This document shows, piece by piece, positions 12,201-51,500 of a stretch of 51,789 nt of DNA. Source of the stretch: an uncultured archaeon (GTDB lineage: Archaea > Thermoplasmatota > Penumbrarchaeia > JASLWR01). A model generated the notes under the pieces. The model did no database searches. It was not told the origin of the DNA and saw nothing but the letters and a program-made list of their open reading frames with translations. A program made the translations under genes and the position numbers. Where the stretch lies: contig CAYSHM010000023.1 of NCBI GenBank assembly GCA_964430885.1, forward strand, positions 1 to 51,789, given 5' to 3'. Within the stretch, counting starts at the first letter, position 1; the number at the start of each line of letters is the position of its first letter.

Positions 12201-12835
12201 AGCAGCTCAAGGTCAATATAGATCATGGTGATACGCAAAATTTCAGTGTTATTCTGCTGAACAACAATACACGGAATTTATCCTTGAATTATAAATGGTT
12301 CCTGAACCGCGACCTTCTAGCTTCAGGTAATAATAACACCTTTTACCTTTTGAATACCACTGGTCTATCCATGGGCAGCTCGTATAATTTCAGGATCCAA
12401 ATTGGATATGCATCAAACATTGAGGAATATACCTGGACCCTTTTAATTAAAAAAGAAACCCTTAGGGATGATGAAGACAATGATCGGAATAAGGCGAGAA
12501 ACCCTACCTTTCTGAACTGGATACTGATATTGGGCATTGCAGGAGCGGTTTTGGGTATCTTATTGATTCCGGTATTTTTCATTATTCGCAGAAAGCGGAG
12601 AGAAAGAGAGCTAGAGAAAAATGTTAACAAGTTATTGACCGAAAAGAATGGGGAGGATTGGATTTCTGATGATTCGGAAAAAGAGGGGGAAGAATCCAAT
12701 AATGTAATCAGTGGAGAAAAGGAAATCCTTGACCATTTGGATATAAGTGTTCCTAATGAAGATAATGAAATTGATGATGACGGATGGTCTGAGAACGAGG
12801 ATGATTTTTATCCGGGCAATTTTTTCGATGAATAA
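9215..12835 (+). CDS. Membrane-anchored extracellular calcineurin-like metallophosphoesterase with Ig-like repeats, Big_5-like domain, TM and acidic tail
   Basis: All five MPP motifs: TDVH, TGD, PGNHE, QH, GHTH. Ig-like repeats are delimited by DITPP, DTTPP, DDIPP and DKQPP. TM followed by RRKRR. Start codon uncertain. Confidence 0.85.
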   Translation: MEVYVLKPTIALNRSGKIAALLAATILFSNLLFFFLFGSSSILHNEMNPSISSVEVTYWISTDRDSRDIDFIVERPRQALPAIRIPGDDFEVWLSGEGLSEASSVTVTAEAYGSQVILDVLGFNETGGRLIIETDIPLFIKPGLYDLDFSVNGVLRTTVKSLSIVNEYRDDFKFIQLTDVHIDDKNSENNLRAVIDEVNLINPAFVVFTGDTLDADPTGSSTSTQEQANIFMSIANNLEVPFYAVPGNHEYGYLTADGIEVYLGTINPLLDYSFNYGPYHFIGMNCGKYQTMTGGIPSPSNNVQSFTEEQVTWLTQDLAEHNNDHNMAIFQHAPLKTENGKELPLWNREEVENLMRQYGVKTYFAGHTHADFIMDGNDEILQGDWSLPTYPLFIQTDTAGAEDTVEACRYRVYKVNQGNIEYCTYDDNNDGIKSAFRSTPAGLLEVSYESNNDFSQSANTFTVKNFQTEDIVNAKVELRLASPASGFDYVPDTGYVSRIFDTPDGQLVDVSFNLTKNSQWAIGVEQKDITPPCIANLTSSVGQDSDGIYDVGHEVEIIIVDDNNESGLWATIDITDENDRSIVDGGVLDSLGFGRYSYIWNTSEIIPWVNYSVKGKLEDPAGNMDIGEKFNLTSINIYMVDTTPPVISRVTASSEGEEAETFSLGSEIIISVLEGKSESGLTGSIQVELLNAKNKTYNHTFILEEEYLGNYIYEWDTVQLNHGFYGIKAELQDPWGNIVQGVHADLDLKIGLIDDIPPEVFSAVPYVISNEERIEDDEFALGDVVHFEVIEKNLEGELNGNICIQHSTGELVTVFPLAPLSDVGHYGASWNTIGNMEGSYTANVTLWDDAGNRDEDGLLANPDIRFDLVDKQPPAIIHTYPLDGATGLDPNVTIWVAFSEPIIQDALVYSVELRELSNAAGPKKMPADILWHPDNYSISLKPINPLVLETQYEVLVGTNIYDLAGNNLANEFRFSFKTKDFSISDPLDLSFTVIPQQLKVNIDHGDTQNFSVILLNNNTRNLSLNYKWFLNRDLLASGNNNTFYLLNTTGLSMGSSYNFRIQIGYASNIEEYTWTLLIKKETLRDDEDNDRNKARNPTFLNWILILGIAGAVLGILLIPVFFIIRRKRRERELEKNVNKLLTEKNGEDWISDDSEKEGEESNNVISGEKEILDHLDISVPNEDNEIDDDGWSENEDDFYPGNFFDE

Positions 12836-12888
12836 TTTTTGATGTTCGCTAATGAGGGCGATAAGCCGGATAAGATCTGGTAATCCCT

Positions 12889-12928
12889 AAAAAATAATAA
12901 AATAGGGACGATATTTTTAATTCGTCCC
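12889..12928 (-). terminator. Hairpin + U-rich terminator after groEL
   Basis: GGGACGA(12905-12911)/TCGTCCC(12922-12928) stem followed on the minus strand by TATTTTATTATTTTTT. Confidence 0.55.
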
Positions 12929-12987
12929 ATATGATATTTCTTCTATTATGTGTTCGGTTTTAGCAAGAATAATGAATATACTAAAAA

Positions 12988-14661
12988 TTATAGACCACCC
13001 ATTCCACCCATTCCGCCCATTCCGCCCATTCCGCCCATTCCACCCATACCTCCCATGCCCATGCCTCCAAGGTCATCATCCTTTTCTTTAGGCTTGTCTA
13101 CAATAGCGACCTCACTAGTTAGAAGCATTCCAGCAGCGGAGATGGCATTTTCAATTGCCATTCTGACCACTTTCTTCGGATCTATGACTCCATCATCCAC
13201 CAGATCGCAGTATTCGAGACTGGCGGCATTGAAACCGAAGTTCCCTGAATTCTCCCTGATCTTCTCCACAACTATATCGCCGTTCACACCTGCGTTGTTA
13301 GCTATCCATTTGGTAGGACTTGATAAAGAAGAAGCGATGATGTTCGCACCCTTTTTCTCATCCCCATCAAGTTGGAGCTCAATGACCCTGTCGTATGATC
13401 TTAAAAGAGCTATGCCTCCTCCGGCTACCACTCCCTCTTCTACTGCTGCACGGGTGGCCTGAAGGGCATCCTCCACACGGTCCTTCCTCTCCTTCAATTC
13501 TGTTTCAGTAGCTGCTCCGACCCTGATTACACCCACGCCGCCGGATAACTTGGCAAGTCTCTCACGGAGATTTTTTTTCTTATAATCGGAGGTGGCATCC
13601 TCAATTTGCGCCTTGATCTCATTAATCCTGCCCTCAATGGCTGACTTTTCTCCCAATCCGCCGATTATTGTGGTATTGTCCTTTGTTACCTCGATTCTCT
13701 TTGCCTGTCCCAGATTTTCCAGCCCTGTAGATTCCAGTTTTCTTCCGAAATCCTCACTAATCACATCTCCGCCTGTAAGAATAGCGATGTCCTCCATTAA
13801 AGCCTTTTTCTTGTCTCCGAATCCGGGAGCTTTCACAGCACACACATTTATTGCTCCTCGCATCTTGTTGAGGATCAAAGTTGCCATGGCGTCTCCTTCG
13901 AGATCATCTGCAATTATGAAGAATGGTTTTCCGCTCTGGACTACCTTTTCCAAAAGAGGCAGGAAATCCTGCATTCCACCAATTTTCTTATCATAGAGCA
14001 GAATGTATGGATCCTTTAACTCAGCAGTCATTCTCTCCTTGTCAGTTGCAAAGTATGGAGAGACAAATCCCTTGTCGAACTGCATACCTTCAACCACTTC
14101 AACCTCTGTTTCAACGGTCTTTCCCTCTTCCAGGGTCACCACTCCGTTCTCTCCCACCTTTTCCAGTGCATCTGCCAGCCTCAATCCAATCTCTTTGTCA
14201 TTGTTTGCAGCTATGGTAGCAACCTTGATCAGGTCGTCCTTTCCCTTAACCTCAACTGCAATTTCTCCGAGGTATTTCTTGATTTCTCCGAGAGCCTTTT
14301 CCATACCTCTGTATAAATAGATAGGATTTGCTCCCGCAGCAATGTTCTTCGCTCCTTCATGAATGATGTCCTGGGCCAATATGGTGGCGGTAGTAGTTCC
14401 ATCTCCAGCGTTCTTTCCGGATTTTTCAGCTACTTCTATCAGCATCTTAGCTCCGAGATTTTCCACATTGTCTTCAAGCTCGATCTCCTTGGCGACAGAT
14501 ACTCCATCCTTGGTTACCTTAGGGGATCCCCAGCTCTGTCCAATGATGACATTCCTGCCCCGGGGTCCTAAGGTTGTCTTGACTGCATTAGCAACCTTGT
14601 TCACGCCATTGATCAGCTTTCTTCTAGCTTCATCTTGAAAATATATGTTCTTTGCACCCAT
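12988..14661 (-). CDS. groEL: Group I chaperonin GroEL (Cpn60)
   Basis: [53 protein letters not shown] and C-terminal GGM repeats. Confidence 0.98.
12991..13069 (-). repeat. 9-bp coding repeat encoding the GroEL (GGM)n tail
   Basis: CC(A/G)CCCATT units, seven GGM triplets. Confidence 0.9.
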
Positions 14662-14689
14662 TTCTATTCCTCCGTAATCCTTTCAATAT

Positions 14690-14986
14690 TCACTCCAATA
14701 TAATTCCGTATATGTCATCGTCTTTCATGAGCAGATATTCCTTGCCCTTTATCTTGACTTCGTTTCCGCCCCATTTTCCAAACAGGACAATATCTCCAAC
14801 TTTAACATCCATAGGGAAGAGGTTGCCTGCTTTATCACGTTTGCCAGGTCCCACCGCTAGGATGCGACCCTTGTTCTGTTTCTCCTTTGCAGTATCGGGT
14901 ATAAAAATACCGCTTGCGGTCATTTCTGCTTCTTCTATCCTTTCTACCAAAACTCTATTACCCAATGGTTTCAGATTGATATTCAT
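14690..14986 (-). CDS. groES: Co-chaperonin GroES (Cpn10)
   Basis: LKPLGNRVLV, mobile loop TASGIFIPDTAKEK, AVGPG, VKVGDIVLF. GGAGG SD. Confidence 0.98.
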   Translation of the reverse strand: MNINLKPLGNRVLVERIEEAEMTASGIFIPDTAKEKQNKGRILAVGPGKRDKAGNLFPMDVKVGDIVLFGKWGGNEVKIKGKEYLLMKDDDIYGIILE

Positions 14987-15064
14987 GGTCCTTCCTCCAA
15001 ATTTTTCAAATTATTCCAATACAGGATTAAAAATATTCTACTATATATTTTCCAATTTACTTCA

Positions 15065-15137
15065 GGGCGGGTGGTATGTAATTTCAGCATTATTAATGAC
15101 TAATCATACCGATTCTACCGTGAAATTATTATCGCCC
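15065..15137 (-). promoter_or_regulatory. Nested imperfect inverted repeat in the putative groES leader
   Basis: GGGCG/CGCCC outer arms, GGTATG/CATACC middle arms, CATTA-T-TAATG core. Confidence 0.4.
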
Positions 15138-15153
15138 CATATGTCAGAACTTC

Positions 15154-15171
15154 TATAAAAATTTTTTTTTC
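15154..15171 (-). promoter_or_regulatory. Putative BRE + TATA promoter for groESL
   Basis: GAAAAAAAAA-TTTTTATA on the minus strand. The same TTTTATAG core occurs upstream of alaS and of the 186-aa gene. Confidence 0.5.
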
Positions 15172-18933: not shown

Positions 18934-21900
18934 ATGAAAAATATTAAAAAAATATTTGCGGCAACAGTCGCATTGACAATGTTGTTAAGCATATTTCCAT
19001 TATTTGGAACTACTGCTGGAGCTCCGAACAGAGCTGGTGAGATTGTAATTTCTACAATTGAATTGAAAGATGATACCAATGTGAGTGGGGTTTATTCTCA
19101 AGGTATGCACATTATTGGGTTGAACTACACACTTTCGGTGGAATTGATTGATGTTAACATTACCTTATCCATCAACAATACTAATGAAACATATACTGAT
19201 ACCAACGCGTCAAATCCTGGCAATTTGGCAGCGGGAGATTATGTCGCATCCTTGGGTGTTGATTTCCAGGCAGTCGGTTGGTATGAGATAATTTACTTTG
19301 TTGAAGGTTGGGATGTGATTTCAGGAGGTATGGTTAACGAGAGCATTACCCGCTACATGGAATTTGAGTCCTTGTATTACTATCTGATTTATTACGAAGT
19401 GACAAATACCGTAATGCATCAGGGTAAGTATCCCCAGAGCGCCATGGCTCTCAATGTGGATGTTTACAATTTCGGTAATGATGATGCAGGATTGTTGAAC
19501 GTAAGTTTAGAGATAGAGGACAGCGGGTCCCAGGCGGAGGATCTCATGAATCCTTTCAGAGAAACCCAGGTTGAACCAGGTAACATGGCCCATGTGCTGC
19601 CATTCCCTTGGGTTCCTTCCGATGAAGATACCTTCGATCTAACAATCAAGGTTACGACCGACCCTGTCACAAGTCCGAATGCAAGTACAAATATAAGTGA
19701 ATTCCAATTATTGATTGAGAACACAACCTCTGCCCACATCAATATTTCAACTCCTCAGCCTGATACCTTGTATACCGGAGAGGATTTCACCCTGCGGGCA
19801 GCGGTGAGAAATTATGGTAATTCCAAATTATTTACCACTTTCATACTCTCCTATTATCCGGATGGTAATCCCGGAGCAGCCCAGGAGTTAGCTGATTTCT
19901 ATGTTGAAAACCTTCAGCCCTACGATAAGTATTTCTTGGAAGCTGACCTCCTCTACAACGAAGTATCCATCCTGGAGGCCGGATCATTTGTTCTGGAGAT
20001 TGCTGATGAAAATTCATCTTCCAAGAATACTACCATGATCACCGTAGATCCCATGCCGAATCAGGCTCCTGAGCTGATGAATGTTTCAGTCCTTCCGGCA
20101 TCCCCGGTGAATGTGGGCGACCCTGTAACATTCGATATAAACTACACCGATGTTGACGCCGATCCAGGCAGTGTTTCAGTTTTCATCGATGGGACCGAAT
20201 ACCCCATGATGCCTGTGATTGAAACTGTAAACTGGAATCAGCGGGTTCTATTTAGATATGAATGGACTGCTACCTGGGATTTAGCCCAGGATCCCGATGA
20301 GGATGGTCAGGAATTCGAATATAATTTCAGGGCAAACGACGGTCAGGGACACAATGCAACGCTGGATGATGGTGGACAGAACTTCACACTGGTTGTGAAT
20401 CCTCCGATGTACGGAGAGTTCAAAGGAATTGTCAAAGATACAGAAGACATTGGAGTAGCCGGTGCGGAGATAATTATTCTCGGAAATGATTATTTCAATG
20501 CGACCTGCGATGCCAACGGGAATTTCTCTGCGATGTTGGCTTTCGGTCAATATAATATTTGGCTGAATGACACGTGGTATGAGGAGAACGGTTACCTTGA
20601 CGGCTATCCCGAGGGCCAAATGGGTGTCAGGATAGTAACTATCACACTATCCAGGGATAATTATCCACTAACCCAGAATTTCGTCCTTCAAGAAGAGGAA
20701 ATCATTCCTTTGCCAGTTTTCAATGGCAGTGTTAATGATACCGATGGAAATCCTCTTGCCGATGTTGATGTGACCTTGGTGATATTCATTGATGAAATGA
20801 GCACTCTGAACACCACCGAACTGGTTGGAGGAGTTGTGAAGAATATTACCGTAAATGTGACCACTAGAACATGGTATAATCTGACGGCTACCACAGACAG
20901 CAATGGTAGTTATACGATTATCGGCGTACCCTTGAACACTTTTGATATAATGAAGCTTACCCAAACCGGAATGAAGAAGTACAGGGAAGATCTGGAGACC
21001 TTGCCTTCAAGTGCAGTAAGCAATGTCTGGTCACTAATGGTGGATAAACCGAATAAATTTGAATTCTCCGAGGCAACCTTCTCCAAGAAGGGTGCACAGG
21101 ACACAATGGTGAATGATACCACCTTCAATGAACTGGCTGTGAAGGTATACTTCGAGCTGGGTAAAACAAGTTTTGGCAATGTTACACTTGAGTTCGTCAA
21201 TGGTTCTGTTGTAGAGGACAAAGAATTCACAGTAACCGGGACCATCACACCTGCAAATGCAACCGTGAAGATCGACGACAATGAGGTGACTGTTACAAGC
21301 GGTAAGTTCAGCATTGTATTGAAAGGCGGAAACCATACCATAGTGGTATCCCTGGCAGGTTATGATGAGTATACTGATACATTTACCCTTGCCAAGAATG
21401 AGGATATGATCATCGAACTTCAGCTTTCTAGCGTCACGGTTACCATCGGTCCTTTCCTTGACGGGGATGGAAATGGTCTTCCGGGTGTTAAGGTTACCTA
21501 CAACGGTGTTGAAAGATTGACGGATGCCCAAGGAATTGCTACATTCGAAGAGGTCCTTGAAAGCGACACTGATGGTGGCAATATTCCTGCAGGAACTGAG
21601 ATCAAATTCGAATTCGACAGTGAGAAAAAGACAGCGAACTGGCCTCTCTCAGAAAAGGATTACAATTCATTTGATCAGGATACTGGCGATAAGAAAAGCG
21701 AGGAGAGCAATCTCCTGCTTATCATTGCTATTATCGTGATAGTTCTGATCATAATAATCCTGGTGGTACTCGCTTTGAAATCAAAGGGCGTACCAGAAGA
21801 TGAACTAATGGATGATGAGATCAGGGAGTATGAATGTCCCAGCTGCGGAGCTATTGTTACTTCCGATATGGCCGAGTGTCCGGAATGCGGCGAGATGTTT

Positions 21901-22158
21901 GAGGAGGAGGAGTTCAGATGTCCCGAGTGCGGTGAACTAGTTGAGATGGATGCGACCTTATGTGATAACTGCGGAGCAGAGTTCGAGTTCCCCGTACCTG
22001 ATGAAATGGATGACGAGGATATGGATGAGGCTCTGGATGAGGATCCGGATATAATAGACGATTTTGAAGTGGAACCGGATCTGGACGAAGAAGAACTGTT
22101 CAAGGATGAGGAAGAACTCCCTGATCCTGATGATCTTCCAGCTCCCGAAGACCTGTAG
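18934..22158 (+). CDS. Single-pass surface glycoprotein (CARDB/Ig-like, carboxypeptidase-regulatory-like, PEGA-like domains) with cytoplasmic double Zn ribbon
   Basis: Signal peptide, many N-x-S/T sequons, TM LLLIIAIIVIVLIIIILVVLAL. Tail CPSC..CPEC..CPEC..CDNC followed by an acidic end. Confidence 0.87.
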   Translation: MKNIKKIFAATVALTMLLSIFPLFGTTAGAPNRAGEIVISTIELKDDTNVSGVYSQGMHIIGLNYTLSVELIDVNITLSINNTNETYTDTNASNPGNLAAGDYVASLGVDFQAVGWYEIIYFVEGWDVISGGMVNESITRYMEFESLYYYLIYYEVTNTVMHQGKYPQSAMALNVDVYNFGNDDAGLLNVSLEIEDSGSQAEDLMNPFRETQVEPGNMAHVLPFPWVPSDEDTFDLTIKVTTDPVTSPNASTNISEFQLLIENTTSAHINISTPQPDTLYTGEDFTLRAAVRNYGNSKLFTTFILSYYPDGNPGAAQELADFYVENLQPYDKYFLEADLLYNEVSILEAGSFVLEIADENSSSKNTTMITVDPMPNQAPELMNVSVLPASPVNVGDPVTFDINYTDVDADPGSVSVFIDGTEYPMMPVIETVNWNQRVLFRYEWTATWDLAQDPDEDGQEFEYNFRANDGQGHNATLDDGGQNFTLVVNPPMYGEFKGIVKDTEDIGVAGAEIIILGNDYFNATCDANGNFSAMLAFGQYNIWLNDTWYEENGYLDGYPEGQMGVRIVTITLSRDNYPLTQNFVLQEEEIIPLPVFNGSVNDTDGNPLADVDVTLVIFIDEMSTLNTTELVGGVVKNITVNVTTRTWYNLTATTDSNGSYTIIGVPLNTFDIMKLTQTGMKKYREDLETLPSSAVSNVWSLMVDKPNKFEFSEATFSKKGAQDTMVNDTTFNELAVKVYFELGKTSFGNVTLEFVNGSVVEDKEFTVTGTITPANATVKIDDNEVTVTSGKFSIVLKGGNHTIVVSLAGYDEYTDTFTLAKNEDMIIELQLSSVTVTIGPFLDGDGNGLPGVKVTYNGVERLTDAQGIATFEEVLESDTDGGNIPAGTEIKFEFDSEKKTANWPLSEKDYNSFDQDTGDKKSEESNLLLIIAIIVIVLIIIILVVLALKSKGVPEDELMDDEIREYECPSCGAIVTSDMAECPECGEMFEEEEFRCPECGELVEMDATLCDNCGAEFEFPVPDEMDDEDMDEALDEDPDIIDDFEVEPDLDEEELFKDEEELPDPDDLPAPEDL

Positions 22159-24137: not shown

Positions 24138-27100
24138 CTAATCCCAAGAGAACAAATCATCATCCTTTCCTTTGCTGTCGTTATCCCAGTTCATATCACT
24201 ATTTTCATTATCCCAGGAATCATCGTTGTTGCCCAGGTCAAAGAGTTCATCAAGAAGATCTCCAGAGTATCTATCACTTGGTTCTGAATTTTTATTTTGG
24301 TCAAGGTCTTCAAAGATGTATTCCCCATCGTCATTGAAATCATTGTCCGCACTGTAATCCTCACCCCATTCCAGCTCCTCATTTTTATCGTTTTCATAGG
24401 GATCTTCATCCCAATCCTGTCTTCCTCGGTAATTCGAATCATTTGATGAATGCTGGTGATTATCCAATTCACCCCCGCTTTGGCGGGGATTATTGTTTCT
24501 TCGGGAAATATTAGGCATGTTTGAATATAGGTCAGAATAGTCTCTTTTATCCTCAACGGTTTCAGAAGGTCGTGTTTCAACTTTACTACTCGCTCTTTTC
24601 TTTCTATCTTTTTCCTTCTTTTTATTGCCCTTTTTTCTTACTAGAAGGGCAATAATGATTATGAATAAAATGATAGCTGAAATGACAATGATTATTATCC
24701 ACATGAGGTTATCCTTTACAAGTTCACCAGCATTGTCCAGAGCGCTGTCCTTTTCCTTTATATTTATATCAGTTCCATAATTTGCGCTTGTGCCTTCGTC
24801 AAGCAGGGATCTAAGCTGAATGTCCAGGTCATACTTCCCACTGGGTATATTTTCAGGAATAGTTATGTTGATCTTCAGATCATATACCCTGTCAGCTTCT
24901 ACCTGGAAGGAATTGAATTCAACTTTGGCCCATTTGGCAGCTTCACCGCTTATCAGTATTTCATAATTATCGATCCCGTTTCCAGTGTTCTTGATCTCCA
25001 GGTTCCAATCGGAATTATAGGCATTTCCTTGAGTAATATTAAGATTTTCAGGAAAATCCGGAAGGATTTTCAATCCGTAGAGTTGCTCTACATTTATCTC
25101 GATTGTCAGCTTATCCGATACCACTGGATCGCCGGGTGGGTCCTGGGCCGATACGGCTATCAGCTCAATAAGGTGTTTACCGGCCAAGGCGTTTTCGTCT
25201 ACCTGAATGGACAGTTTTCCTTCACAGCTTGAGAAACATTCCAATGGATAGGTGGAATTGACTAACTGTCCGCTGATCCATGAAACCGTATTGAATGATA
25301 CGTACAAAGTATCTCCAGAATTACCGAGATTGGATAGGTCGAATTGAATATCCTTGCTTTCACCAGTCTTCATATTAAATGCTGATTCCGCGCAGGTTAT
25401 TTCACAGCTGTACAAGGGTTTGATCACTACTTTTATTCTCTGAATGCTGCATATGCTTGAATTCTTACTGGAAGAAGCCTTGAAGTCGAAATAATATGTG
25501 CCTGCCTCTACATGTTCACCGGGTGTGACCCTGATCTCACTGAAATGTGTCTCATAGGCGTCTATCGATACCAGAGTTGATGGGATGTCGATATCCCAAA
25601 GGCTCTCCCCGCCAATTTCTAGCTGGTGGGAAAAATTGGACAGCGATATATTAATCATGTCCCTGAAGTTACCCCGATTCCTGATTTCCATGGATGTGTT
25701 GGTGGCATTACCATTGACGGTTTCCAGATTGTTGGAACCGAATTGCAGTTCAACATCGGGAATTTCCGCAACACTAAGGTTAACAGTTTTGATCTTGGCA
25801 ATATCTTGTGAGATGGATTCAACTCTAATATTAAAGGAATATCCTCCGGCAGTTGCATATTCGGGCACTTCCACCCTCACTGTTGCATTATGATGAGAGA
25901 ACTCATCTATTCTTACATCAAGATCATCAAGTGTTATTGCCCAGTTCGAAGGATATGTGATGATCTCCAGGTTGAAATCATCTTTTCCATTCCCTGAATT
26001 GATTATTGGAATATCTATCCATACCTGCTGGTTGGGAATAACATCGTAAGCCATAGGGGGCTCGATCTCGAATCCGTAGGTTCGATTAATAATGACATTG
26101 AATGCATGGTGATCATAAGCTGTTCCATTTGACATGACGGATGTAGCAGTAAAAACCAGCTGTCGGTTTCCAGCAGTACTTTTCGAAACTGGTATAATAT
26201 TTGCAGTTATCCTATCTTCGGAAAAGGCTTCCATGGTGAAATTATCCCTTGATAGCTCTACTTCCCAACCCTGGGGGATGTCTTGAAGTTCAATGCCCAC
26301 TATGTCCTGACAATTGGCCTGATTCGAAATATTCAGCTTGAATGATACAGGTTCACCCGGATAGGTTGATATATCTTCTACTGGAGAGGACAGTTCCAAA
26401 CCAAATTCTTCGGTCACGCTACATGTCATGTTCACAAATGTCCCCCTACCACCACTCATCACTCCTATGGGGAGAATATGGTTTGAATGGGCCAGAAGCC
26501 CTTCTGGCAGAGTTACTTGTATTGTTATGTTCTTTTCCTCTCCCGAAGCGATAGGTGTGTTCTGAGCAGAGCTGCCAGAAAATGATTCAGGGAGCTTTGA
26601 GAAATCTATATCTATCCTTTCCGCGAATGGTCCGTTATTAACCACCTTGATCTCATAAGTGCATGTTTCTCCAGGTTTTGCTTCATCAATTTCTTTCAAA
26701 ACGGTGAAATCTGTAGGCATTCCTCCTATAGCTAAAGAAGGATCACCAAGAAGATTGTATTCCGCCAGAGTCTTATGGTCCATGACATCATTGTTCCCCA
26801 CATCGTTCATATAATATGTGCAGGCTCTAGCTAGCATACGGCCAGGAGTTCTATGCCCCTCCTGAAAGCTTTTGTATAGATGGACATCCATAAAACCTGA
26901 TCGATGCTTGTAATAGTCGGTCCCCCAATCCCCCCATCCAACTCGAGTGCAGGAGATGACTGCAATTCCTCCCCCTTCTTCGTTCAGAAGCAATTCTTCT
27001 GAAATCGCCTCACCAGGATTATCCGGCCAAAATGTGGGTTTAAGTTCATTGTCGAAGGATCCGCACAGGCATGCGTCGAAGGTGAAAACAGGTAATTTAT

Positions 27101-28697: not shown

Positions 28698-28850
28698 TTT
28701 TTCACCAGGTAGTTGAATGATAGGATTTTTCAAGTTTCTCAAGTTTATTGAACTCACATTGGGACGAAAATATCTTAGAAGGATTTTAGGTTTATGACTC
28801 TTACGGCCCGTATCCATAGCGAATCAGCTTATTTGAAGGTGATGATTAAA

Positions 28851-29036: not shown

Positions 29037-32000
29037 CTACCAGTCATCATCGCTCCATTCATCATCCGCGTCGTCTTCAATATCGTCCCAATCCCTATTG
29101 AGTTCCTCATTTGCAGCTATTACAAGATAGGTATCTTCTTCATAATAATCATCATCTTCTGAGCCCCAATCATCGTCATCCATGTCAGACTCTACGATCT
29201 CTGCGTCTATGATTTTAGCTTTGGTTTTACTGCTTCTTTTGGACGGTTTAGGAGGTTTAGGTGGTTTTTTCTTCCCTTCGAATCTAGCATGTTTAGACTT
29301 CGGTTTTTTCCGTTTATTCCCCTCAACCAAATCAGACTTCTGCCCTTTTTTCCTTTCTTTACTCATTTTTTCAGTTGTCAATTGAGTATCCGCCCTATCC
29401 CCGGGCCTGGTATCATATACTCGGACTCTCCCAGGCGGTGAATCATCCTTCTTGCGGTCTATACTACCGTATAACTTCTGATATTCCTCATCATATTCCC
29501 TTGACTTCTCCTTATTACTGCTTCTTTTCTTTATGAGGATCAGCAGGATTATGATGAAACCCAGAAACAGGACCAATCCGATTATCAATCCAATTGTCAA
29601 TCCCTTACCCAGGCCGCTCTTGCTTTCCTCCTTATCATCGTTTCCATTAGGGCCTATATCATCGTCATCTGCCGGATTGATGTCATCATCATTGTCATCA
29701 TCAGTCAGGTCAGGATTATTTACTGTGATGATCACTTCATCGGTATCATTGTTCCCGAATTTATCCTTGACCATCAAAGTTATTTTAAATGTGCCGGATT
29801 CAAAGAAGTTGAATTCGGTGACCTCACCGTATAGGACATACAGTGTGGAATTATATGTGAAAGACCATGTGTAATTAACTATGCCCACATTGTCATAACT
29901 TCCTGTAGCATTTAGTGATAGTGTCTCGCCCTTCATTATTGTTTGATCACTTCCGGCCTTGGCAAGGGGTTGAACACTATCCTTAAGCGTGACATTTACC
30001 CGATCAGAGGCGGTATTGCCTTCCGAATCAGTCACAGTAAGAACAGCAGTGTATCTTCCAGGTATGTTGAATATGAATGAAAAGGTCTTATCGTATTTAA
30101 GGTGAAAGGTATCGTCATAGCTCAGATTCCAGGTATAGTTCACAATGCCGACGTTATCTCTGCATATTTTTGGATCGATGTTCACGGGCCCAGGGTTGAG
30201 CAGGGTTGTGTCATCACCTATCACAACCCTCGGCGGTTCCGTATCTCTAACAGTGATAATAATAATATCTGAATGAGTATTACCCATTCCATCCTCCACC
30301 ACAAGAGTGACCTTGTATTCACCGACAATGGTGAACATGAAGGATGCTGATGCGCCGTAAACCCTGTTCATAACCTGATCATAAATGAATTCCCAGGTGT
30401 AGTTCATTATGCCGATATTGTCAGTTGAACCCTTGCCATTAAAATGGTGCAGGGAATTTTGATCTATTGTCAGATCGTTTCCTGCATCAGCTTCAGGCGG
30501 AACAATATCCACCAATCCCACATAGGGGAAATCATCATCTGAATTTCCACTACCATAAATGCTGTATGGTGTAAGCCATTTATTACCTGAGAACTGGGCT
30601 GATGGATAACGGTCACCGTAATCCGACCAGTAATTACCCTTTCCCACTCCGTCATCCCAATTGTTCTGGCTTCCATTGTCCAATCCCTGGGATGAGTCTC
30701 CGCCATTGTCAATGAAATTGTTGGAATGGACTTCGTTATTACTGCCGGATTCCAGGTAAAAACCGAAATTGCCATTGTTCTTTATATCATTCTTCTGAAT
30801 AGAGTTCAAGGAACTGCTCCCCCAGGATCTGATGCCGTATCGGTCATTGGAGCTGATGGTGTTCTCAAAGACCTCTCCGTTGCTGGAGTCCGAAACCAAT
30901 ATTCCATCCAGTGAATTCATATGGATCTTGTTATGGGAAATTATACTGTCCTGTGAGCTTGAAACCACCATCCCATAGGAATTGTTATCTGCATTATTTT
31001 GCTCAATTATAATATCTTCAGAATCTCTGACATTGATCCCGTCCCCATTGTCAGGGCCGCAATCATTCCCTATTATATCGGATAATGATACGAAATTGAA
31101 ATGGATGCCTGAACCGTTGTTCATTGTGCATGTGTTCTGAAGAACCCTATTAGATGTGGAGTGGTCGACATATATTCCGTACTGGTTGTCATTACACGTG
31201 CTTCTTTGTATTGTGTTGCTGGCACTTCCGCTCCTAATAATGATCCCATATTCAGAGTTGGATATTAGCTGGGAATCCGCTACCTGATTGTTGGAGGAAA
31301 GGAGTTCTATACCGTTATCGTTATGATGAGATGAATGATTGCTCACCGAATTCTGGTTGGAATGGGGTGAGATATAGATCCCTGCATTATCATTGTAATT
31401 ACAGGAGTTTGAATCCATTTCATTGTATATGCAGAATTCATCGATATATATTCCGTGCTTGTTGTTGTTGCATCTATTATTGAGTATCCTGTTGTAGTTG
31501 CTGTTGCTCTGAAGCATTATCCCATAAAGACGATTATTGATACATTCGTTATCCTGGATAGTGTTGAATGAGGAAAATGCAAGCATGATGCCGATACTTC
31601 CGTTGGAGGCTGCAACTCCCTTGACAGTGATATTGGTGCAGTTGGCCAATATCACTTCACCGTAATTATTTCCGACCAGGACTCCAGTCTCTTTATTCTT
31701 GAAATAACCGATTGTCTTGCCCTGAACTGAATTGCTCTCCTCTATTATGTGAGTGTTCCAGTTCTCCAGATCATAACCTGCGATGAAAATTCCGCTCTCC
31801 TCAAGTGTATTGTTCTTCATCCGTATGTGTTGGCATGAATCCAGCACAATGCTGTGTTCCAGGTTCCCGAAGCAATCGTTCTTGTCTATATTGATACTGG
31901 CTGAATTGTGGAGGTGGATTCCAGATCCGTCATTGTCATGAGCGGAATTATCAATTATGTCATTGTTATTGGCTGATAAAAGGTAAATCCCCGCACCGCC

Positions 32001-32834: not shown

Positions 32835-33011
32835 GATTGTCAACCTCTACTTGTTTTGGTCACTTCAATTCAATGCTAAATTTAATTTGCTGATTTTTGG
32901 AGAAAGTGTCCCGATCAATGCAATAATCAGATAGAATTAGTATGTAAAGATAAATCAAATAGAAATATCTTTTTGGTTTTTTAATAAAGAATCAGGTTAT
33001 AAAAAACCAGT

Positions 33012-35307: not shown

Positions 35308-35671
35308 CACTCTTATTATATATATGGTGGATCAAAATTGAATGGGAATGTTGATGATATTATTTATCTAAACCTAATAAGTCTATAAAAAATTAACCAT
35401 ATTTTTAAGGTCCTCCTTCTTTTTATGAAGTAGTCTGGCCAATATTATTCTACATTTAAGGACCAATTGAAAGAATCGATGTAAAATGCCAATGATAATT
35501 ATTGAAGAAGGTCATCTTCAATTGAGAAATATCAAATAACAATTATGAAGGGTTTTCTATGTATTTCCAACAATTAATTATAAGATTTCATTGACGAATA
35601 CTGTTAAATATAGTGAATCGTATTTAATAAAACGATTTGAACAAAGAATTTTTGAGTTAAAAGGTGAAAAT

Positions 35672-41600: not shown

Positions 41601-43090
41601 TACTCACAGCCAATCGTTCAGGATATCTTGACCGGACCTATGATGATCTAAAGGTTGAACTTGGAAGGGTAGCTGACAGGAGCTTCATTCTTGAGAAATT
41701 CATGGTCTATGATATGGTGGAGGTTAGAGGAACGGTCACAAATGAGGACGGAAGGGCCTTAGGCGGTGTGAATATTTATTTGGGTGAGGCAGGAGGCTCA
41801 TTATATTGGGAAGCCAAATCCAATGCCAGTGGCGGATTCAGATTTGATACTATATACGGTTCATACCAGGTAGTGTTCAGAAGAGACGGATTCCGCGATC
41901 TGACCATAGATTTTGATCCAATTAACCAAACAGAAATATTGGATGTGGTGATGTCGGACGATACCCTTCTCCGAATAATTGTAAAGGATGAGGACGGCAA
42001 TCTGCTTGAAAGGGCTGAAGTTTCCATACAGAATGGTCCCACGGTGGTAGAAACCGGGACCACGGATGCTATGGGATTCTTAGAGCTTGACGGTATCCTC
42101 ATCCCTGGTACTTATATTATTGTCTTCAAAGCCGATGGATACAAGGAGGCCAGGAGGACCGGTATTGAACTGAGTTCAGGAAATGTCACGGAAGTACAGA
42201 TCAATCTAAAAGCCGAAGCTGTTTCAGACGATGGCGATAGCAGTTCCGCGCTTTCGTTGATCGGCTGGATATTGTTCATTATTGTGCTGATAATTGTCGT
42301 CCTGCTGGTAATAATTGTTGCCAGGAGACCTGCGGTAGACGGTAAGGAAGAATCCATAGATGATAATGAATCTGCTGATGAAGCGGAACCGGAGTCCGAT
42401 CTCACAGAGGGTGAGGGAGGGGATGCTGAGCCGTCAGCAGGGGCGGGAACAGAAGAAGTAATTGGCGATGGAACCGGAGCTGAAACAGGTGCTCAGGAAT
42501 ATCAAGCCCCGCAATTGGGTTCTGCTCCTATTGCAGATGAAAAATTGGCTCTTGATGATGGAGCGCAAAGAGACCTTCCGGCCTTACCTTCAGCTCCAGT
42601 CTGTCCCTCCTGCGGTATGGAAGCAGATTTCAGAAAGGATACGGATTCATACTGGTGCAAGGATTGCAAGGAGGAACTTACCAAGGACGTCGGTATATTA
42701 TCCGTGGAGGAATCGGAATCTTTGGCAGATGAGAGTGCTGTAGACGGGGAAAGTACGGAAGCTACTAAAGAAATCCCGGCGGATTCGGCTGAATCATCCG
42801 TTTCTCCACAAGGAGAGGATAGTGAAGTGGAAATTGAGCTCCAATCCGAACTTCAGGATGATAGTGGGGATGAAGAACAGAGGACCCATCAGGATCAATC
42901 TGCTATAGATGATGCAGCCGAGGCTTCGGACGAAGAGGCCGGTGCAACAGAAGATACGTCAACCACTGAGAACCCTGAAGAAAATAGTGAAGATGGTACC
43001 GTAACCGAAGGGGAAGGCCAGGAAGAGAGCCAGGATATAAACGAAGACGATCTTGATGATATGCTGGATGGAATAATGGACGATATCTGA
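35672..43090 (+). CDS. Giant (~2470 aa) single-pass surface glycoprotein: MAM/InhA-like jelly rolls, CARDB-like, Big_5-like and carboxypeptidase-regulatory-like domains, TM, acidic tail with Zn ribbon
   Basis: ATG 35672 with AGGTGA SD and a signal peptide. Three jelly-roll modules (FWHWY..GWYIDDI; FWHDF..GWYIDDI; FDHWY..GWFMTNL). DVTPPAVLETVP...VFDLVGN. TM + ARR. Tail CPSC..YWCKDC. Confidence 0.88.
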   Translation: MYSILSTRLTKSKWMSLFFVLLLLAPMGWMNLFSFSTNAVNPPDANLEEATMISGLSSFGSDEPLLIWDNDGGDQPDGLNGCESFINDSLASNGYQNITISAQGENLTAFNLTNYTVVFIVLGMGPGTGNISAPEMAELTAFLDNGGRLYVEGGDIGFQAEDASGSGEYANLWPYLGAQYQSNGTNQEYVVGCAPVITQNLSFAYTGDNASMDEIGSANGGFEILNNSGTGFGIANNKSYRTVLFTFQFGGLVDWGNFTTKDELMRRLMHFFAYEKKVDISVGKENLPTASFTDFETESDEGWTHGIVQGNIDCWERGLPTSGPNSAHSGTNVWATDLSANYLDFTDCALYMPRVDLFPNSKLEFWHWYNIERGWDFGQIEVQSQPGGNWQMISSFTGQSNGWVKETISIPNQFSGNVQIRFRIITDFIITAPGWYIDDIGLISDNGMFDHDDGYFVSNEVEIEPNVTVKNEGNVPAAFDLRARVYNQNNGTEVYNQSVLVNLTPRETMDVGFPQKWNTSTDVNATYIMEFMSLANEENGTDANNVTSFWIYVGIFTDLASQDVMFNVSDPFLPGINLTPKGKFLNLGNANISAFTASLKITDTNSTVIYWQNVSGNYLNLSWGNSTIIEFPVWQVPNGEDDYLVNLSHDFVDKDSGNDIYRTWVKGEEYYDAMVEEVLFNVSLPLNSSDVVNITVPIVNNGNIDALNFAVTCVVLNQTGSEIYNATNASVSVGLPNGNITRVAFDNIQLPSEEGDITVIIIITWPNDENQSNNLFMDDFPIDDHHDVGFPDPLDVQIVGEKQYDYFPLGPREIRTNIANFGNVNQTPTVRFDYAIEGPPRYLFFDDVEGSVANDTWTKVNFAGGQSQFHVVEPNSPHSDFHSPDHSWWLGQEATGDYADNNDAELICTRMDLRGETEATLNFWHDFKIAQDDILGIAYSLTSLDDPPNGMWQWYANWQGGNSGGWTQATYDLTPFAGQEFLLGFVALTQDNAGVPTVDDGWYIDDINITGPNPIVIDSHFVQAPELAPGQNATVTDVYDFQQNNTYFILPTTVLQGDENVANNDGYNTSMFMDFYDLSPTSIEVQGARTTFEKLDLSENDGGLIPGGRWSFEWGLPTNPTGPLSTGFNDNCWAVNLDSDYREHQDITLTYMLDLKNYTGAQLTFDHWYLTEEGNDGLWLEIKNGTNDDYLNLTPLGGYPSFTKVPWDGTRIPAYSGKSGFDPFFPEWRQPIFNISEYVGYVVEIRFHFCSDNVPNDPGWFMTNLSVIDPYTNAWYRMNSGEDCTVNFDFTNLGNIPSIQASAHLNVRGITDPGYSYQDTITISGIDPLALESDVFTTPWTPPAVEGLYWMNITLDIPNDLKPENSEIGIIVEVEDFHALAAKDILLPIENQAYALGDTIGIGALVRNWGTHPEQDVDVEIEIVDIDNASWAPVVLTDTLDDIPLKEDALMEFDWTIPDRLGARYMITLTVTHPLDENATDNVYSHIFYGLHKRSANGLFGFIVDNSSDSPYYSQALSGVDVLLVSRNTGDLMNTTQTDELGYYYFDLWDQVPGREYWVYYQKDWYYRSTYLLSLMPRTVYRMDMEMESSNLLPIARLMINGGESMTHYFIDNMELEFDFSSTLDNDDPGQMLTYRLESDISGLLFQGENDSFVTSLVSGSHNITLTVSDEMGGFASTSTTVISMNTSWKSYNIGVLTVELLCAGPGAIIIENQEVMPHLPAGYVDIHEDFHFNLKIQGDFFIEGMIITMTYTDDILHHNAYETDLGIFVYYHRPQTRSLAGWSELEVIERDFENNTLSVLNDNRTWQMDIDISMMAPEDVTPPAVLETVPVDKEKNASIYTDIYIVFSEPIQFNLLKKSDMTVKVDVVETKDYSLRYNDTERTLYIVMDSHPLDPNEKYSVKIDRVFDLVGNALEEITFSFRTKEPAVLKEKVHGYVRDKNLNPLSGASLLVDGDMVAVTDDWGYFSFYIQAGTYILTANRSGYLDRTYDDLKVELGRVADRSFILEKFMVYDMVEVRGTVTNEDGRALGGVNIYLGEAGGSLYWEAKSNASGGFRFDTIYGSYQVVFRRDGFRDLTIDFDPINQTEILDVVMSDDTLLRIIVKDEDGNLLERAEVSIQNGPTVVETGTTDAMGFLELDGILIPGTYIIVFKADGYKEARRTGIELSSGNVTEVQINLKAEAVSDDGDSSSALSLIGWILFIIVLIIVVLLVIIVARRPAVDGKEESIDDNESADEAEPESDLTEGEGGDAEPSAGAGTEEVIGDGTGAETGAQEYQAPQLGSAPIADEKLALDDGAQRDLPALPSAPVCPSCGMEADFRKDTDSYWCKDCKEELTKDVGILSVEESESLADESAVDGESTEATKEIPADSAESSVSPQGEDSEVEIELQSELQDDSGDEEQRTHQDQSAIDDAAEASDEEAGATEDTSTTENPEENSEDGTVTEGEGQEESQDINEDDLDDMLDGIMDDI

Positions 43091-48289: not shown

Positions 48290-48342
48290 CAGCATCAATC
48301 TCCAAACCCTAAAATTGGAAGTTCTTGCATTATATGGTCTTT

Positions 48343-48360
48343 CTATAAAATATTTTTACC
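48343..48360 (-). promoter_or_regulatory. Putative BRE + TATA promoter of alaS
   Basis: GGTAAAAATA-TTTTATAG on the minus strand, ~50 nt upstream of the start. Confidence 0.5.
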
Positions 48361-48475
48361 CTTTTTATGGGGGAGAATATCTCCAGCAATGATCTGGTTC
48401 AACCTTTTTATGCTTATTAAACACAAATACAAAACAGATACCAGTTACATTTAAATGAATGATGATTTCAATTTT

Positions 48476-48510
48476 AAAAAATAAAAATGGGGAGGATATT
48501 TCATCCTCCC
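48476..48510 (-). terminator. Hairpin + U-rich terminator
   Basis: GGGAGGAT(48490-48497)/ATCCTCCC(48503-48510) stem, followed on the minus strand by CATTTTTATTTTT. Confidence 0.65.
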
Positions 48511-48551
48511 TTCTGCAAGGTCACATCGAGTACACGAAAAACCATTGGAAT

Positions 48552-51500
48552 TCAGAAATCAAAATCTTCATCCCAATTGTCATCCTCGTCCTCATCCCTG
48601 TAATCATCATCATCATCTTCCCAGGAATCTTCCTCGTCGCCCCCTTCTTCTTTATCATCCCAACCATCGTCTTCGCTATCCACATCAATTTCCTCTTCAT
48701 CGTCCCATTCTCCCCCCTCATCATCCAAGGCGTCCTCGTCGTCTTCTCCCCAATCATCATCATCATCGTCTTCCAGGTCATCAATGATCTCATCTTCCAG
48801 GGTGTCCGTATCCTCAGTTCTCTTATTCTTCTGACGTAGGGCCAAGAAAATTATGATAACAAGAATGATAACAGCTATTACAAGGAACAATATCCACATC
48901 TTGGAGCCATCCTTATCATCCCCGTTATCCCCATCACCCTTTTTGTCAGGGCTGATTGTGGATTCTGGTGAGGTCCAGCCAGTTAGATGGGTTCCCGGGA
49001 CAAAGCTACCTGCAATTAAATTGTTCAGGATTCCGGAAGAGCTAGTATAATCCTTGTGGCTGAAAGTAACATTCAACTCATAACCGGCCCATTTTGCCGG
49101 TATTGAGAATGTGACCTTCCCATTTTCTCCAGTAACTGCACTATCGTTGTAAATACCTCCACCTATAACTATTCTGATGGTTGCATTGGCGATCTTCTCC
49201 CCATCCCCGTCTACAAAGGGTCCGAGTGTTATAACAATGGGTTTCTTTACTGGCGCTGACCATCCCTGAAGGGCCTCAGGTGAAATTGATGTATCACCCT
49301 GGATGTTCACAAGCTTACCAGATGCAGAGCGGTAATCAGGATGGGTGAAAACGACACTGATGTTCCATCCTTTCCATTCCAGAGGTATGGTGAATGAAAC
49401 ATTTCCATTGACATCAGTAGATGTCCAGTAGGTATAGTTACCATCTTCCACCTGGATTGTTATAGTGGCGCCCTCTATGCCGTTACCATCACTGTCGGTA
49501 AAAGGCCCCATATTCAGTACCAAATCAGGTATTTCAGGAACCGACGCCTGTGTGCTGACTGCAGCGGTTCTATTTAGCATAGGAACCTTTCGGGATATGC
49601 CCTTTACTGTGACGTTCCCGATCTCACCCCCCAGGGCATCAGCCGAAGCAGTCACTTCCAGGGTGATTATCACCGTTTCGCCGATGCCTAATTCCGCTGA
49701 TTGGGATGATAGAACCGCCTTCCATCCGCTTGTGTTGTAGATTATCTCAAGGTCCACCGTATCCATGCCTTCTCCCTTGTTTTTCAGGGTGAGATTGTAT
49801 ACTGCCGTTTCACCAGGTTCAACGATCATCCCGTTATCAAGCTTTATACTGAAATTGTATTCCAGGTTCAGCACCTCGATGTTTATGGGAATGAACCGTG
49901 ATCCCTGGGAACTGATTACATTCAATTTTCCTATGAACACACCTTCTGAAGTGGCTTCAGGTATATCTATGGTTATTTCCACCATCCTATGAGTGCCCCC
50001 GTTCAGATCAAATGATCCTGGGGTGATATCTATAGTGCTGCCCGGAATTGTACCACTTCCGGATTCAAGGTCAGTAACAGAAAGCTGAATATTGTTTATC
50101 GCGCCTAAACCGGAATTCTCACTGAAATTAAGTGTCCAAGTTTCATTGTATCCATCTTCCAATTCCCCGAATATTCCGCCGGGACTGATCGTCAGGGCAG
50201 TAGCCTCCTCGGGTTCCTGTGAATACAATGTCAGAGGACCCACCATTGCAGTAACTTCTATTGTTGTTACATGCACCTCGCCTGGATTAATGAAACCCTC
50301 ATAGGACTCCCGACTTGCTTCCCGGTGGTCAATGAATCCCTGAATGTCTAGTTCATAATCTCCAGTGGAGATTCCTATGAGCTCTAGGGTGTAAGTTCCT
50401 ACATCGTAGATGGGAAGTAAGATCATTTCCTCGATAATACCCCCGTCGGCAATATTCTGAGCTTCTTCTGAATAGTGGTAGGTGTAACCATTGTAGGTGA
50501 ACTCAGCACCAGGTATCCCCACTTCCAGCTTGCCGGAGTCTCCAAGAAGACCCACATGATTTCCGTGCTCGTCATAAAGGTGTAGTGTAGCATTGGAGTG
50601 CAGAGTGAAAACAGCGGATAGATTTGCCCCTTCGGCAAGGGTCTGGGTTTCCAGGCTGAGCAATGCATAGGCTGTCGCCATTTCGCCATTTTCCTCATAG
50701 AATGATGTTCCAAGCCAGTAACTTTCATTCCAGACACGAAGACCGGTAAGGTTCTCCACCATGTCGTCCACCCAAACATAGTTTCCGTCCTCTGTGAAGT
50801 ATCCGTCCGCTACCTCGATGGTTTCGGTATCGGTCATTGTAAAAGCCTTTGCCAGTGTCAAATAATAGTAATATAGAGCTGAATCCTCGCCCCATCCGGG
50901 ATTCGCCTCCCATGTGTAATTCCTTGTGAACCAATCCAAACCTGCCTGTATTCGCTCATCTGCTGCATCTATGCCGCACAGCATATATGACCAGATACCA
51001 GCGGCAGTCATGCTTCCGTAGGCTTCCATCTGCTGTAAACCATGAGGCCCTTCTTCCTCGTTATTTGGAAGATAGACGAATCCTCCGCTGTTGTGTGACA
51101 TATACGACTCATTATGGGCCCATGGTTCTGTGTTGTATTCTTCGAGATATTGGCATCTTTCTATGAAATAGATTGCTTTCTCCCACATCTCATGATCCTT
51201 TGAAAGGTTGCCCCAGGCATCCAAACCCATGAGGGCCCATTGAGTGTTGGAAAGGTCCGATCGGGAATGCCCTCCATATCCGAATCCCCCATATTTCCAG
51301 TTGGTATTATTGATGTTCTCCCAGGGACAATCCTCATCCCACTGTGACCATGCCAGCCATTCACCAAGGGTGTTGATCTCGTCCAGGTATTCTGGGTTCA
51401 GGGTGGCCTTCAATGCCAAAATCGCCATTGAAGCATAGTATGTGCCCCTCCCTTCATCGCCTATGGGGGGATAATGGAAGGATATGTTTCCGGTTCCATT

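Follow-up and report, generated by a model that had tools for sequence, protein, structure and literature searches.

A conserved, C-terminally anchored acidic-tryptophan motif on the predicted cytoplasmic tails of surface proteins in a class of Thermoplasmatota archaea

Introduction

Apicomplexan adhesins of the TRAP/MIC2 family carry a tail whose hallmark, as described for this family, is a penultimate tryptophan (Trp) preceded by several negative residues and needed for gliding (PMC2688672), and binding of aldolase by this tail has been described as requiring the Trp and the negative charges (PMC3448169). The W-acidic motif of kinesin-1 is described as a Trp flanked by Asp or Glu in a disordered cytoplasmic segment, often with Leu or Met at position −2 (for example, L-E-W-D-D in SKIP), that is read by the concave groove of the TPR domain in the kinesin light chain; in the same account, Y-acidic cargo motifs are C-terminal and use the free carboxylate (PMC6214655). 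Here we describe motifs of this form on the predicted cytoplasmic tails of surface proteins encoded by a 51,789-base stretch of DNA from an uncultured archaeon (Thermoplasmatota; Penumbrarchaeia; JASLWR01), contig CAYSHM010000023.1 of GenBank assembly GCA_964430885.1, which we call the window. Throughout, an acidic Trp is a Trp with at least three Asp or Glu (D/E) within three residues on either side.

Eukaryotic cells characteristically connect their surface proteins to the interior through short linear motifs, a kind of wiring that is almost unexplored in archaea. Our literature searches, supplementary files excluded, returned no archaeal description of acidic-Trp tails. Two other C-terminal elements with a Trp invite comparison. 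The acidic (A) region of WASP-family proteins is an acidic stretch with a conserved Trp a few residues from the C-terminus, preceded by WH2 and central elements, and the NWETF-type pentapeptide is a C-terminal, Trp-containing peptide on a methyl-accepting chemotaxis protein (MCP).

Results

Four window proteins carry acidic-Trp tails

The window is one entire contig (C23) of a 3.13 Mb genome (G000), which is in 44 contigs and 91.6% complete. Seven large proteins encoded in it have an N-terminal hydrophobic segment, a long ectodomain and a single C-terminal membrane helix that is followed by Lys/Arg and a tail of 80–248 residues. The Pfam families matched by their ectodomains are a calcineurin-like phosphoesterase (Metallophos) with Big_5, Peptidase_C25 with its propeptide, and Beta_helix/NosD with PKD; the other matches are CarboxypepD_reg/MG4 behind an unnamed barrel-like region, fn3, CARDB/CarboxypepD_reg, and MAM/CarboxypepD_reg. 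The tails are predicted to lie on the cytoplasmic side, as judged from the positive-inside rule, the types of extracellular domain, and the presence of zinc ribbons on some of them. A PGF-CTERM/archaeosortase-type signal consists of a signature motif, a membrane helix and, as the last element of the protein, a few basic residues; the window proteins do not fit it, given the long tails that come after the helix.

Four of these tails contain acidic Trp, and all four are free of Cys. The tail of the C25 (gingipain-like) surface peptidase (open reading frame (ORF) 24138–28817; tail 24141..24626, minus strand; amino acids (aa) 1398–1559, 162 aa) has five Trp, with codons at 24411, 24366, 24213, 24186, and 24144; four of the five are in acidic context, and the last is penultimate (...S-W-D-stop). 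In the beta-helix/NosD-PKD surface protein (ORF 29037–32843; tail 29040..29516, minus strand; aa 1110–1268, 159 aa), four acidic Trp (codons 29166, 29088, 29055, and 29040) come after a basic Lys/Pro block, and the last of them is the final residue. The tail of the alpha/alpha-barrel-like surface protein, whose N-terminus is off the contig (ORF 48552–51785; tail 48555..48824, minus strand; aa 988–1077, 90 aa), is 64% D+E and contains five acidic Trp (codons 48750, 48705, 48660, 48621, and 48573); it ends D-F-D-F, with the last Trp six residues from the end. The weakest member is the tail of the calcineurin-like phosphoesterase (ORF 9215–12835; tail 12593..12832, plus strand; aa 1127–1206, 80 aa), with two acidic Trp at codons 12659 and 12785. 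At the tail background of 0.74% Trp, the probability of the Trp count is 0.00058 for the barrel protein, 0.0074 for the C25 peptidase, 0.031 for the beta-helix protein, and 0.12 for the phosphoesterase, whose tail is therefore weak on its own. The original prediction, made from the window alone, had quoted 16 motif strings for these proteins, and all 16 were found in the four tails, in the segments after the last predicted membrane helix. The window tails showed no DNA tandem repeat behind the motif copies, only GAT runs, and the copies are not recent DNA duplications.

The motif is enriched in tails and anchored at the C-terminus

For the genome-wide analysis, a simple longest-first caller gave 2015 non-overlapping ORFs of at least 80 aa, and membrane helices were predicted with a Kyte-Doolittle window. 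These predictions gave 277 type-I-like proteins, of which 178 have a tail of 40 aa or more. Trp enrichment in acidic parts of the tails was borne out: 97 of 231 tail Trp stand in acidic context, compared to 54.0 ± 5.4 (maximum 72) in 1000 within-tail shuffles, a ratio of 1.80 and a departure of about 8 standard deviations. Of all tail Trp, 42% stand in acidic context, whereas in ectodomains the figure is 5.9% and in ORFs that lack a membrane helix 5.4%. Three or more acidic Trp within 60 aa were seen in 13 tails (32,333 residues) and in six ectodomains (268,410 residues). Trp is rarer in tails (0.74%) than in the proteome (1.28%) and yet concentrated, such that 91 tails have none (61.8 expected) and 23 have at least four (12.9 expected). 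Acidic-Trp units come in clusters of 2–8, mostly 6–19 residues apart, and the residue after the Trp is Asp rather than Glu at about 4:1.

The extreme C-terminus is a preferred site. Trp is found within the last four residues of 26 of the 178 tails (5.19 expected). Across the proteome, the pattern [DE][DE]W.{0,3}-end was matched 19 times against 2.16 expected, and 15 of these 19 matches are on proteins with a membrane helix, which 37% of all ORFs have; with F, Y, or L in place of W, the enrichment is only 1.6–1.9 fold. Under a looser definition, the penultimate position is the commonest for a terminal Trp (20 of 49), and many tails end D-W-D. The C-terminal motif is also carried by proteins whose tails are just 10 and 19 aa long, by a membrane AAA+ ATPase, by an intramembrane protease of the PrsW family, and by a Tpt1-like enzyme. 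We also noted, within C5 69105–72544, a soluble 466-aa protein that has five acidic Trp in an acidic C-terminal region and lies beside two identical 223-aa genes, the N-terminus of which we take to resemble a class III signal of the archaellin or pilin type.

The motif is conserved and spread across the class

The C25 peptidase is one case of conservation. All seven sequences compared, the window protein and six database orthologues of 39–42% identity, end W-[ED](-[ED]). Their tails align only at four invariant islands, Y.DLYSNLP, GW[DE]D..E..F, LD.LFDF, and the terminal Trp; the rest is unalignable. In other genomes of the class, two C25 loci of the same family have the ends V-W-E-D and E-W-E-D, a third is cut by the edge of its contig, the end of a family f5 homologue reads D-D-W-A-D, and four homologues from family f7 (L009–L012) have tails of only 28–32 residues that are almost pure motif, with 2–3 acidic Trp. 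All three same-family orthologues of the beta-helix protein retain several acidic Trp and end ...D-D-E-W-[ED]-[VM]. In the barrel protein, three G-W-[DE]-[DE]-E units are retained in three of three orthologues, which end E-F-Y-D. Membrane-anchored J-domain proteins of 717–721 aa (L123 in genome G025 and L133 in G009) share an acidic ...D-W-D end that is conserved in two genera.

A DNA-level search of all 37 class genomes for [DE][DE]W[DE]-stop was dropped as a census, because 111 matches against 101 in the reversed control leave it without power; an excess was seen in the window's family only (35 versus 13 in the control). The pattern also accepted TGG at the stop position, and it was used solely as a source of examples. 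Among 19 true-stop matches in seven other class genomes, 14 end long ORFs with a membrane helix plus tail, families f4, f5, f7, and f8 included, and the remaining five are short spurious frames. Outside the class, 20 C25 homologues were sampled from five other families of the phylum, and none has an acidic-Trp tail; three have a helix followed by 1–25 residues, and 17 have no helix. Among 150 representatives of barrel-domain homologues, a small sample, the query and its two nearest relatives are the sole members of the Trp class; by the criterion used, a C-terminal helix is missing in 118, and of the others 24 have short tails and eight long ones. On this evidence, the tag is an elaboration of this class. 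Taken together, these results indicate that the acidic-Trp motif is a real, class-wide, conserved, and C-terminally anchored feature of predicted cytoplasmic tails.

Acidic Trp and zinc ribbons assort independently

The other three large window proteins have tails with Cys clusters. The fn3-rich surface protein (ORF 1856–6211; tail 1859..2530, minus strand, 224 aa) has a terminal four-Cys ribbon-like cluster and no Trp; the tail of ORF 18934–22158 (21799..22155, plus strand, 119 aa) has a double zinc ribbon with eight Cys and no Trp; and the tail of a 2499-aa surface protein (ORF 35591–43090; tail 42344..43087, plus strand, 248 aa) has one four-Cys ribbon-like cluster, with its sole Trp inside the cluster. 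The contrast drawn from the window alone, Trp tails without a Cys cluster and Cys-cluster tails without acidic-Trp repeats, is thus correct as a description of these seven proteins. That all three Cys clusters are zinc ribbons holds in part. The ribbons of ORF 18934–22158 exceed the Pfam cut-offs (Zn_ribbon_3, PF13248, 49.6 versus 27 bits; DZR, PF12773, 33.2 versus 27.3; Zn_Ribbon_1, PF13240, 31.4 versus 25), but ORFs 1856–6211 and 35591–43090 show CxxC-x(14–17)-CxxC with sub-threshold matches only, the best being DUF5817 (22.7 versus 31 bits) and Zn_ribbon_IS1595 (19.9 versus 25.4).

Genome-wide, the mutual exclusivity that had been proposed for the two features fails. With a ribbon defined as CxxC-x(6–30)-CxxC, the 178 tails include 23 with at least two acidic Trp and 52 with a ribbon. 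A ribbon is present in six of the 23 acidic-Trp tails and in 46 of the other 155, so that double-positive tails occur at the rate of independence (6 observed versus 6.7 expected, Fisher p = 0.81). For a broader Trp class of 31 tails, defined by at least two acidic Trp or an acidic Trp end, the figures are 7/31 versus 45/147 (p = 0.51), and 102 tails have neither feature. From genome frequencies, we calculated that the 4-versus-3 split of the window would be expected about one time in six under independent assortment. In a relative, two tails (L134 and L135) carry both acidic Trp and a zinc ribbon. The original prediction was to be abandoned if the two features co-occurred at random and Trp positions varied freely; co-occurrence is random, and Trp positions are nonetheless conserved in the C25, beta-helix, and barrel proteins, so that free variation is not what we found for three of the four window proteins.

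Whether the Trp class is that of enzyme ectodomains was examined by Pfam scans of all 31 Trp-class proteins, 23 of 45 with ribbons only, and the first 20 of a random 30 from the 102 with neither feature. The 23 comprised the three window proteins and 20 from a random 30 in list order, with three near-identical paralogues from C16 skipped and the last four left out. A catalytic domain was present in 7/31 Trp-class proteins versus 2/43 of the sampled others (p = 0.03), which agrees with the proposed link, but with beta-helix/NosD included the difference falls to 12/31 versus 10/43 (p = 0.20). The catalytic domains are Metallophos, three C25, one C11, one polysaccharide deacetylase, and one CotH in the Trp class, and GHL10 and C11 in the others. 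All three complete C25 paralogues of the genome are in the Trp class, and 19 of the 31 Trp-class ectodomains have no enzyme-like domain, most having Ig/PKD-type domains only. The link to enzyme ectodomains is a weak tendency, inflated by paralogy among the three C25 proteins. On C16 (29568–50401), five tandem paralogous surface proteins of about 1330–1376 aa each have a tail of 202–265 aa with one ribbon, and the one of the five that was scanned has Laminin_G_3; tail classes can be inherited by duplication, which confounds simple counts.

Ribbons of this kind are also found away from surface-protein tails. At 2–1708 (minus strand), running off the contig, the window encodes a soluble, extremely acidic protein with at least seven copies of a four-Cys ribbon of about 30 aa, each with an aromatic pair conserved ahead of the second CxxC and with an acidic trailer resembling Y-M-P-E-D-F; no Pfam family was matched above its cut-off. 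The same type of ribbon ends the soluble proteins C27 22131–23642 and C5 77584–78114, and it resembles the tail ribbon of ORF 35591–43090. A second Hsp70 paralogue of the genome (C2 44879–47002, 707 aa) ends in a four-Cys ribbon like those of the tails; the canonical DnaK (C7 101591–103432) ends in acidic D-Y-D-D-L-D.

Other tail modules and neighbouring genes

A second motif, Y-x-x-L-Y-[GS], recurs in the tails: Y..LY is present in 12 of 178 tails, versus 2.0 by shuffle, and 11 of these have the tight form. Some of the carrier tails contain acidic Trp and others do not, and the motif also occurs in relatives, including another family of the class (L122). In the window, it lies near the membrane in the C25 tail (Y-S-D-L-Y, 24525..24539, minus strand), where it corresponds to the invariant Y.DLYSNLP-like island of the orthologues, and in the beta-helix tail (Y-Q-K-L-Y, followed by G; 29469..29483, minus strand), where it is kept in three of three orthologues. 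Together with LD.LFDF and the ribbons, this motif supports tail modules that are mixed and matched rather than classes of tails.

Two other genes of the window are mentioned for completeness. An AAA+ ATPase at 7143–8690 (plus strand) has Mg_chelatase/Sigma54_activat-type matches and a CxxC...CxxC insert, and neither a protease domain nor a membrane helix was detected in it. The translation of 12988–14661 (minus strand) ends in a Gly-Gly-Met repeat tail and presumably represents a chaperonin resembling bacterial-type GroEL in an archaeal genome.

Candidate partners

We surveyed the genome for proteins that could read the motif. Its cytoskeletal genes are one SepF and three of the FtsZ/tubulin family. 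Snf7 was not found in the genome as assembled (91.6% complete), and no actin or MreB turned up: two matches to the MreB model are Hsp70s, and the actin and aldolase families were not searched. SepF and FtsZ were dropped as readers; the C-terminal peptides of FtsZ are not of the acidic-Trp type.

TPR proteins are plentiful, with 37 TPR_16 matches in the genome, and three were followed up and rejected as general readers. The TPR-like protein at C32 141–1205, which has an acidic-Trp end, is the C-terminal piece of a P-loop/TPR protein of about 940 aa cut by the contig end, and the tail is absent in three orthologues and one paralogue. The TPR protein at C28 28475–30172 has full-length orthologues only in the window's family, where two genomes encode them, and a partial match in a single further family. 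The third, at C27 20415–22067 (locus L151), is a soluble 550-aa protein in which a six-repeat TPR domain precedes a disordered region containing nine or more acidic Trp. The combination was present in all six members seen (G000, G001, G002, G003, G007, and the database protein P0010; orthologue loci L156–L159). In two of them, the G001 orthologue and P0010, acidic-Trp blocks alternate with Arg/Lys blocks, and in three of the six the last element is a four-Cys ribbon similar to the one that ends window ORF 1856–6211. The next gene, C27 22131–23642, encodes a Zn-ribbon/TPR/double-ribbon protein. An AlphaFold2 model of the C27 20415–22067 protein, built on a five-sequence alignment, gave a predicted local distance difference test (pLDDT) above 90 for the TPR residues 1–225 and below 50 for the disordered motif region, with no confident docking of the motifs onto the protein's own TPR domain; Foldseek matched that domain to generic TPR superhelices only. 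The family combines all three elements considered here in one soluble protein, and it may serve as a connector, as a competitor, or as a reader carrying its own pseudo-ligand. It was seen in only two families of the class, whereas the tails are class-wide, and is therefore not a universal reader.

Discussion

The acidic-Trp motif is enriched in tails, anchored at their C-termini, conserved within the class, and independent of zinc ribbons. From these patterns in the sequences, we consider it probable that the acidic-Trp elements are short linear docking motifs, read by a protein partner with a Trp pocket; that the motif binds a partner, and which partner, is what we infer. The units would sit on intracellular disordered tails of single-pass surface proteins, and on some other membrane and a few soluble proteins. 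Each would consist of a Trp kept exposed by its flanking Asp/Glu, with the last unit often at the free C-terminus, mostly as Trp plus one acidic residue. The exposed Trp may insert into a hydrophobic pocket on a cytoplasmic partner, where the surrounding surface is positively charged; avidity would come from several copies, and through the tag the surface protein would be tethered or positioned from inside. Acidic Trp, Y-x-x-L-Y-G, L-D-x-L-F-D-F, and zinc ribbons would then be independent tail modules that are mixed freely and do not form two exclusive sorting classes.

Several observations weigh against docking as a full account. Two C25 homologues from family f8 (L005 and L006) lack the motif. 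The phosphoesterase motif is kept in none of three orthologues, which share another C-terminal, helix-like motif. Hydrophobic residues in general favour acidic blocks in the tails (ratios of 1.41 for Phe, 1.33 for Tyr, and 1.17–1.30 for aliphatics, with Gly/Ser/Asn at about 1.0), and part of the signal is therefore compositional. The densest acidic-Trp run in the genome, six acidic Trp in 23 aa (C17 30541–33057, aa 548–570), lies in a predicted ectodomain, and five looser clusters are also predicted to be extracellular; acidic-Trp runs are therefore not strictly cytoplasmic. Basic blocks (net charge of at least +8 in 20 aa) are commoner in Trp-class tails than in others (8/31 versus 11/147, p = 0.007), and the ORF caller, the helix prediction, and the motif definitions are all crude and home-made.

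The excess of basic blocks fits tail-to-tail association equally well, and this leads to the first alternative, that the motif needs no reader. Through charge and cation-pi contacts, acidic-Trp blocks would bind basic Arg/Lys blocks, whether in their own tail, in a neighbouring one, or in soluble scaffold proteins, and would form beneath the membrane a multivalent cortical mesh or condensate that clusters surface proteins. The long alternating basic and acidic-Trp arrays of the soluble TPR family suit such a mesh, as do the predicted disorder of its motif region and the lack of confident self-docking onto its TPR domain in the AlphaFold2 model. Yet the median maximal basic charge is alike between the two classes of tails (Mann-Whitney p = 0.45), and the 28–32-aa tails of the f7 C25 homologues have no basic block at all. 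A preference for the extreme C-terminus and single Trp positions that are invariant across orthologues of about 40% identity are also more typical of pocket recognition. We therefore regard reader-free association as unlikely, while giving it real weight.

Docking could also be part of something larger. In a speculative extension, to which we give only a slim chance, a shared acidic, penultimate-Trp tag would link surface enzymes and adhesins, dozens of them and unrelated to one another, with a scaffold or a force-generating system inside the cell, in a possibly wall-less class; soluble TPR/acidic-Trp/Zn-ribbon proteins would serve as a multivalent connector. If so, surface proteins would be positioned, clustered, moved, or shed from inside, and the tails would be an archaeal counterpart of TRAP/MIC2 or W-acidic tails.

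The motif stands at the free C-terminus of very different proteins, namely, surface enzymes, the AAA+ ATPase, the PrsW-family protease, the Tpt1-like enzyme, and the J-domain proteins, and such a spread suits a general machine better than a specific adaptor. It could thus act as a C-degron, a signal for turnover or quality control by which a cytoplasmic or membrane AAA protease removes tail stubs or surplus membrane proteins. Against this, internal repeats distant from the C-terminus are conserved as well, nothing connects the motif with a protease, and known prokaryotic C-degrons are mostly non-polar rather than acidic; we hold the degron to be improbable. We find it harder still to see the motif as a by-product of composition, in which acidic low-complexity tails happen to hold functionless Trp. 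The tails are indeed very acidic (D+E 24% overall and up to 64%), which makes acidic neighbours likely for any Trp, and the phosphoesterase tail is neither significant alone nor conserved. However, the 1.8-fold excess persists in the composition-controlled shuffles, Trp is concentrated while depleted overall, its positions are conserved, and the C-terminal excess is 5-fold to 9-fold. Finally, the original model of two mutually exclusive classes, acidic Trp for enzyme ectodomains and zinc ribbons for the rest, has next to no credibility: it could draw on the clean window split, the catalytic enrichment, and the C25 paralogues, but chance-level co-occurrence refutes it for this genome, the L134 and L135 tails and the soluble TPR family combine both features, 102 of 178 tails have neither, and most Trp-class ectodomains are not enzyme-like. 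Independent assortment of the modules speaks against two sorting or anchoring classes; the tails are therefore no basis for dividing these proteins into two functional classes.

One motif is present on about 30 of 178 long tails of a single genome, and its conservation extends across a class of archaea that are abundant in sediments and use surface peptidases such as C25 to feed on detrital protein. Discovery of its reader would reveal how these archaea organise the cell surface from inside.

Comparison with known systems

The chemoreceptor pentapeptide of the NWETF type does not describe these tails, as no carrier scanned has an MCP signalling domain. With the acidic region of WASP-family proteins the archaeal tails share an acidic Trp end; they differ in that Pfam scans of tail-bearing proteins showed no WH2 or central helix and in that the archaeal tails belong to membrane proteins. 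To our knowledge, Arp2/3 is not expected in Thermoplasmatota. The Cys-cluster tails resemble the Zn-ribbon tails of bitopic membrane proteins, being small four-Cys ribbons on the predicted cytoplasmic side of single-pass proteins, with 52 of 178 tails of the genome matching the Cys pattern; they differ in that two of the three window ribbons are below every Pfam cut-off. A docking role of Zn-ribbon tail modules is, as far as we know, described from bacterial examples only.

The kinesin-1 W-acidic motif is the second-closest system in form. By the consensus given in the cited account, the archaeal tails qualify: ends such as L-E-W-E-D and M-E-W-E-D match it letter for letter, G-L-E-W-E-S occurs in C25 tails, and W-acidic motifs likewise often come as two copies on one membrane-protein tail. 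The acidic F-Y-D end of the barrel orthologues recalls the Y-acidic motifs as described there. Kinesin, unlike the carriers studied here, is eukaryotic.

Closest in form, going by the published hallmark, are the TRAP/MIC2 tails, which combine a type I surface protein, a disordered short or medium tail, a negative cluster, and a penultimate Trp. In these adhesins, the tail connects to an actin-myosin motor via aldolase or a connector protein. The C25 tail has the same arrangement (S-W-D after D-D-D), and its orthologues end E-W-E-D or E-W-D; the beta-helix tail departs from it by ending in Trp itself, and the barrel tail by having its last Trp six residues from the end. The archaeal motif is usually repeated several times within a tail, and the archaeal proteins have no TSR or VWA domains (their Pfam lists comprise Peptidase_C25, Metallophos, Beta_helix/NosD, PKD, CARDB, and others) and no homology to these adhesins. 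Because membership in both the TRAP/MIC2 and the W-acidic systems fails on homology, the likeness is convergent and one of form only. The comparison with eukaryotic acidic-Trp docking motifs made in the original prediction is, in that sense, apt: the archaeal motif converges in form on two well-studied eukaryotic docking signals.

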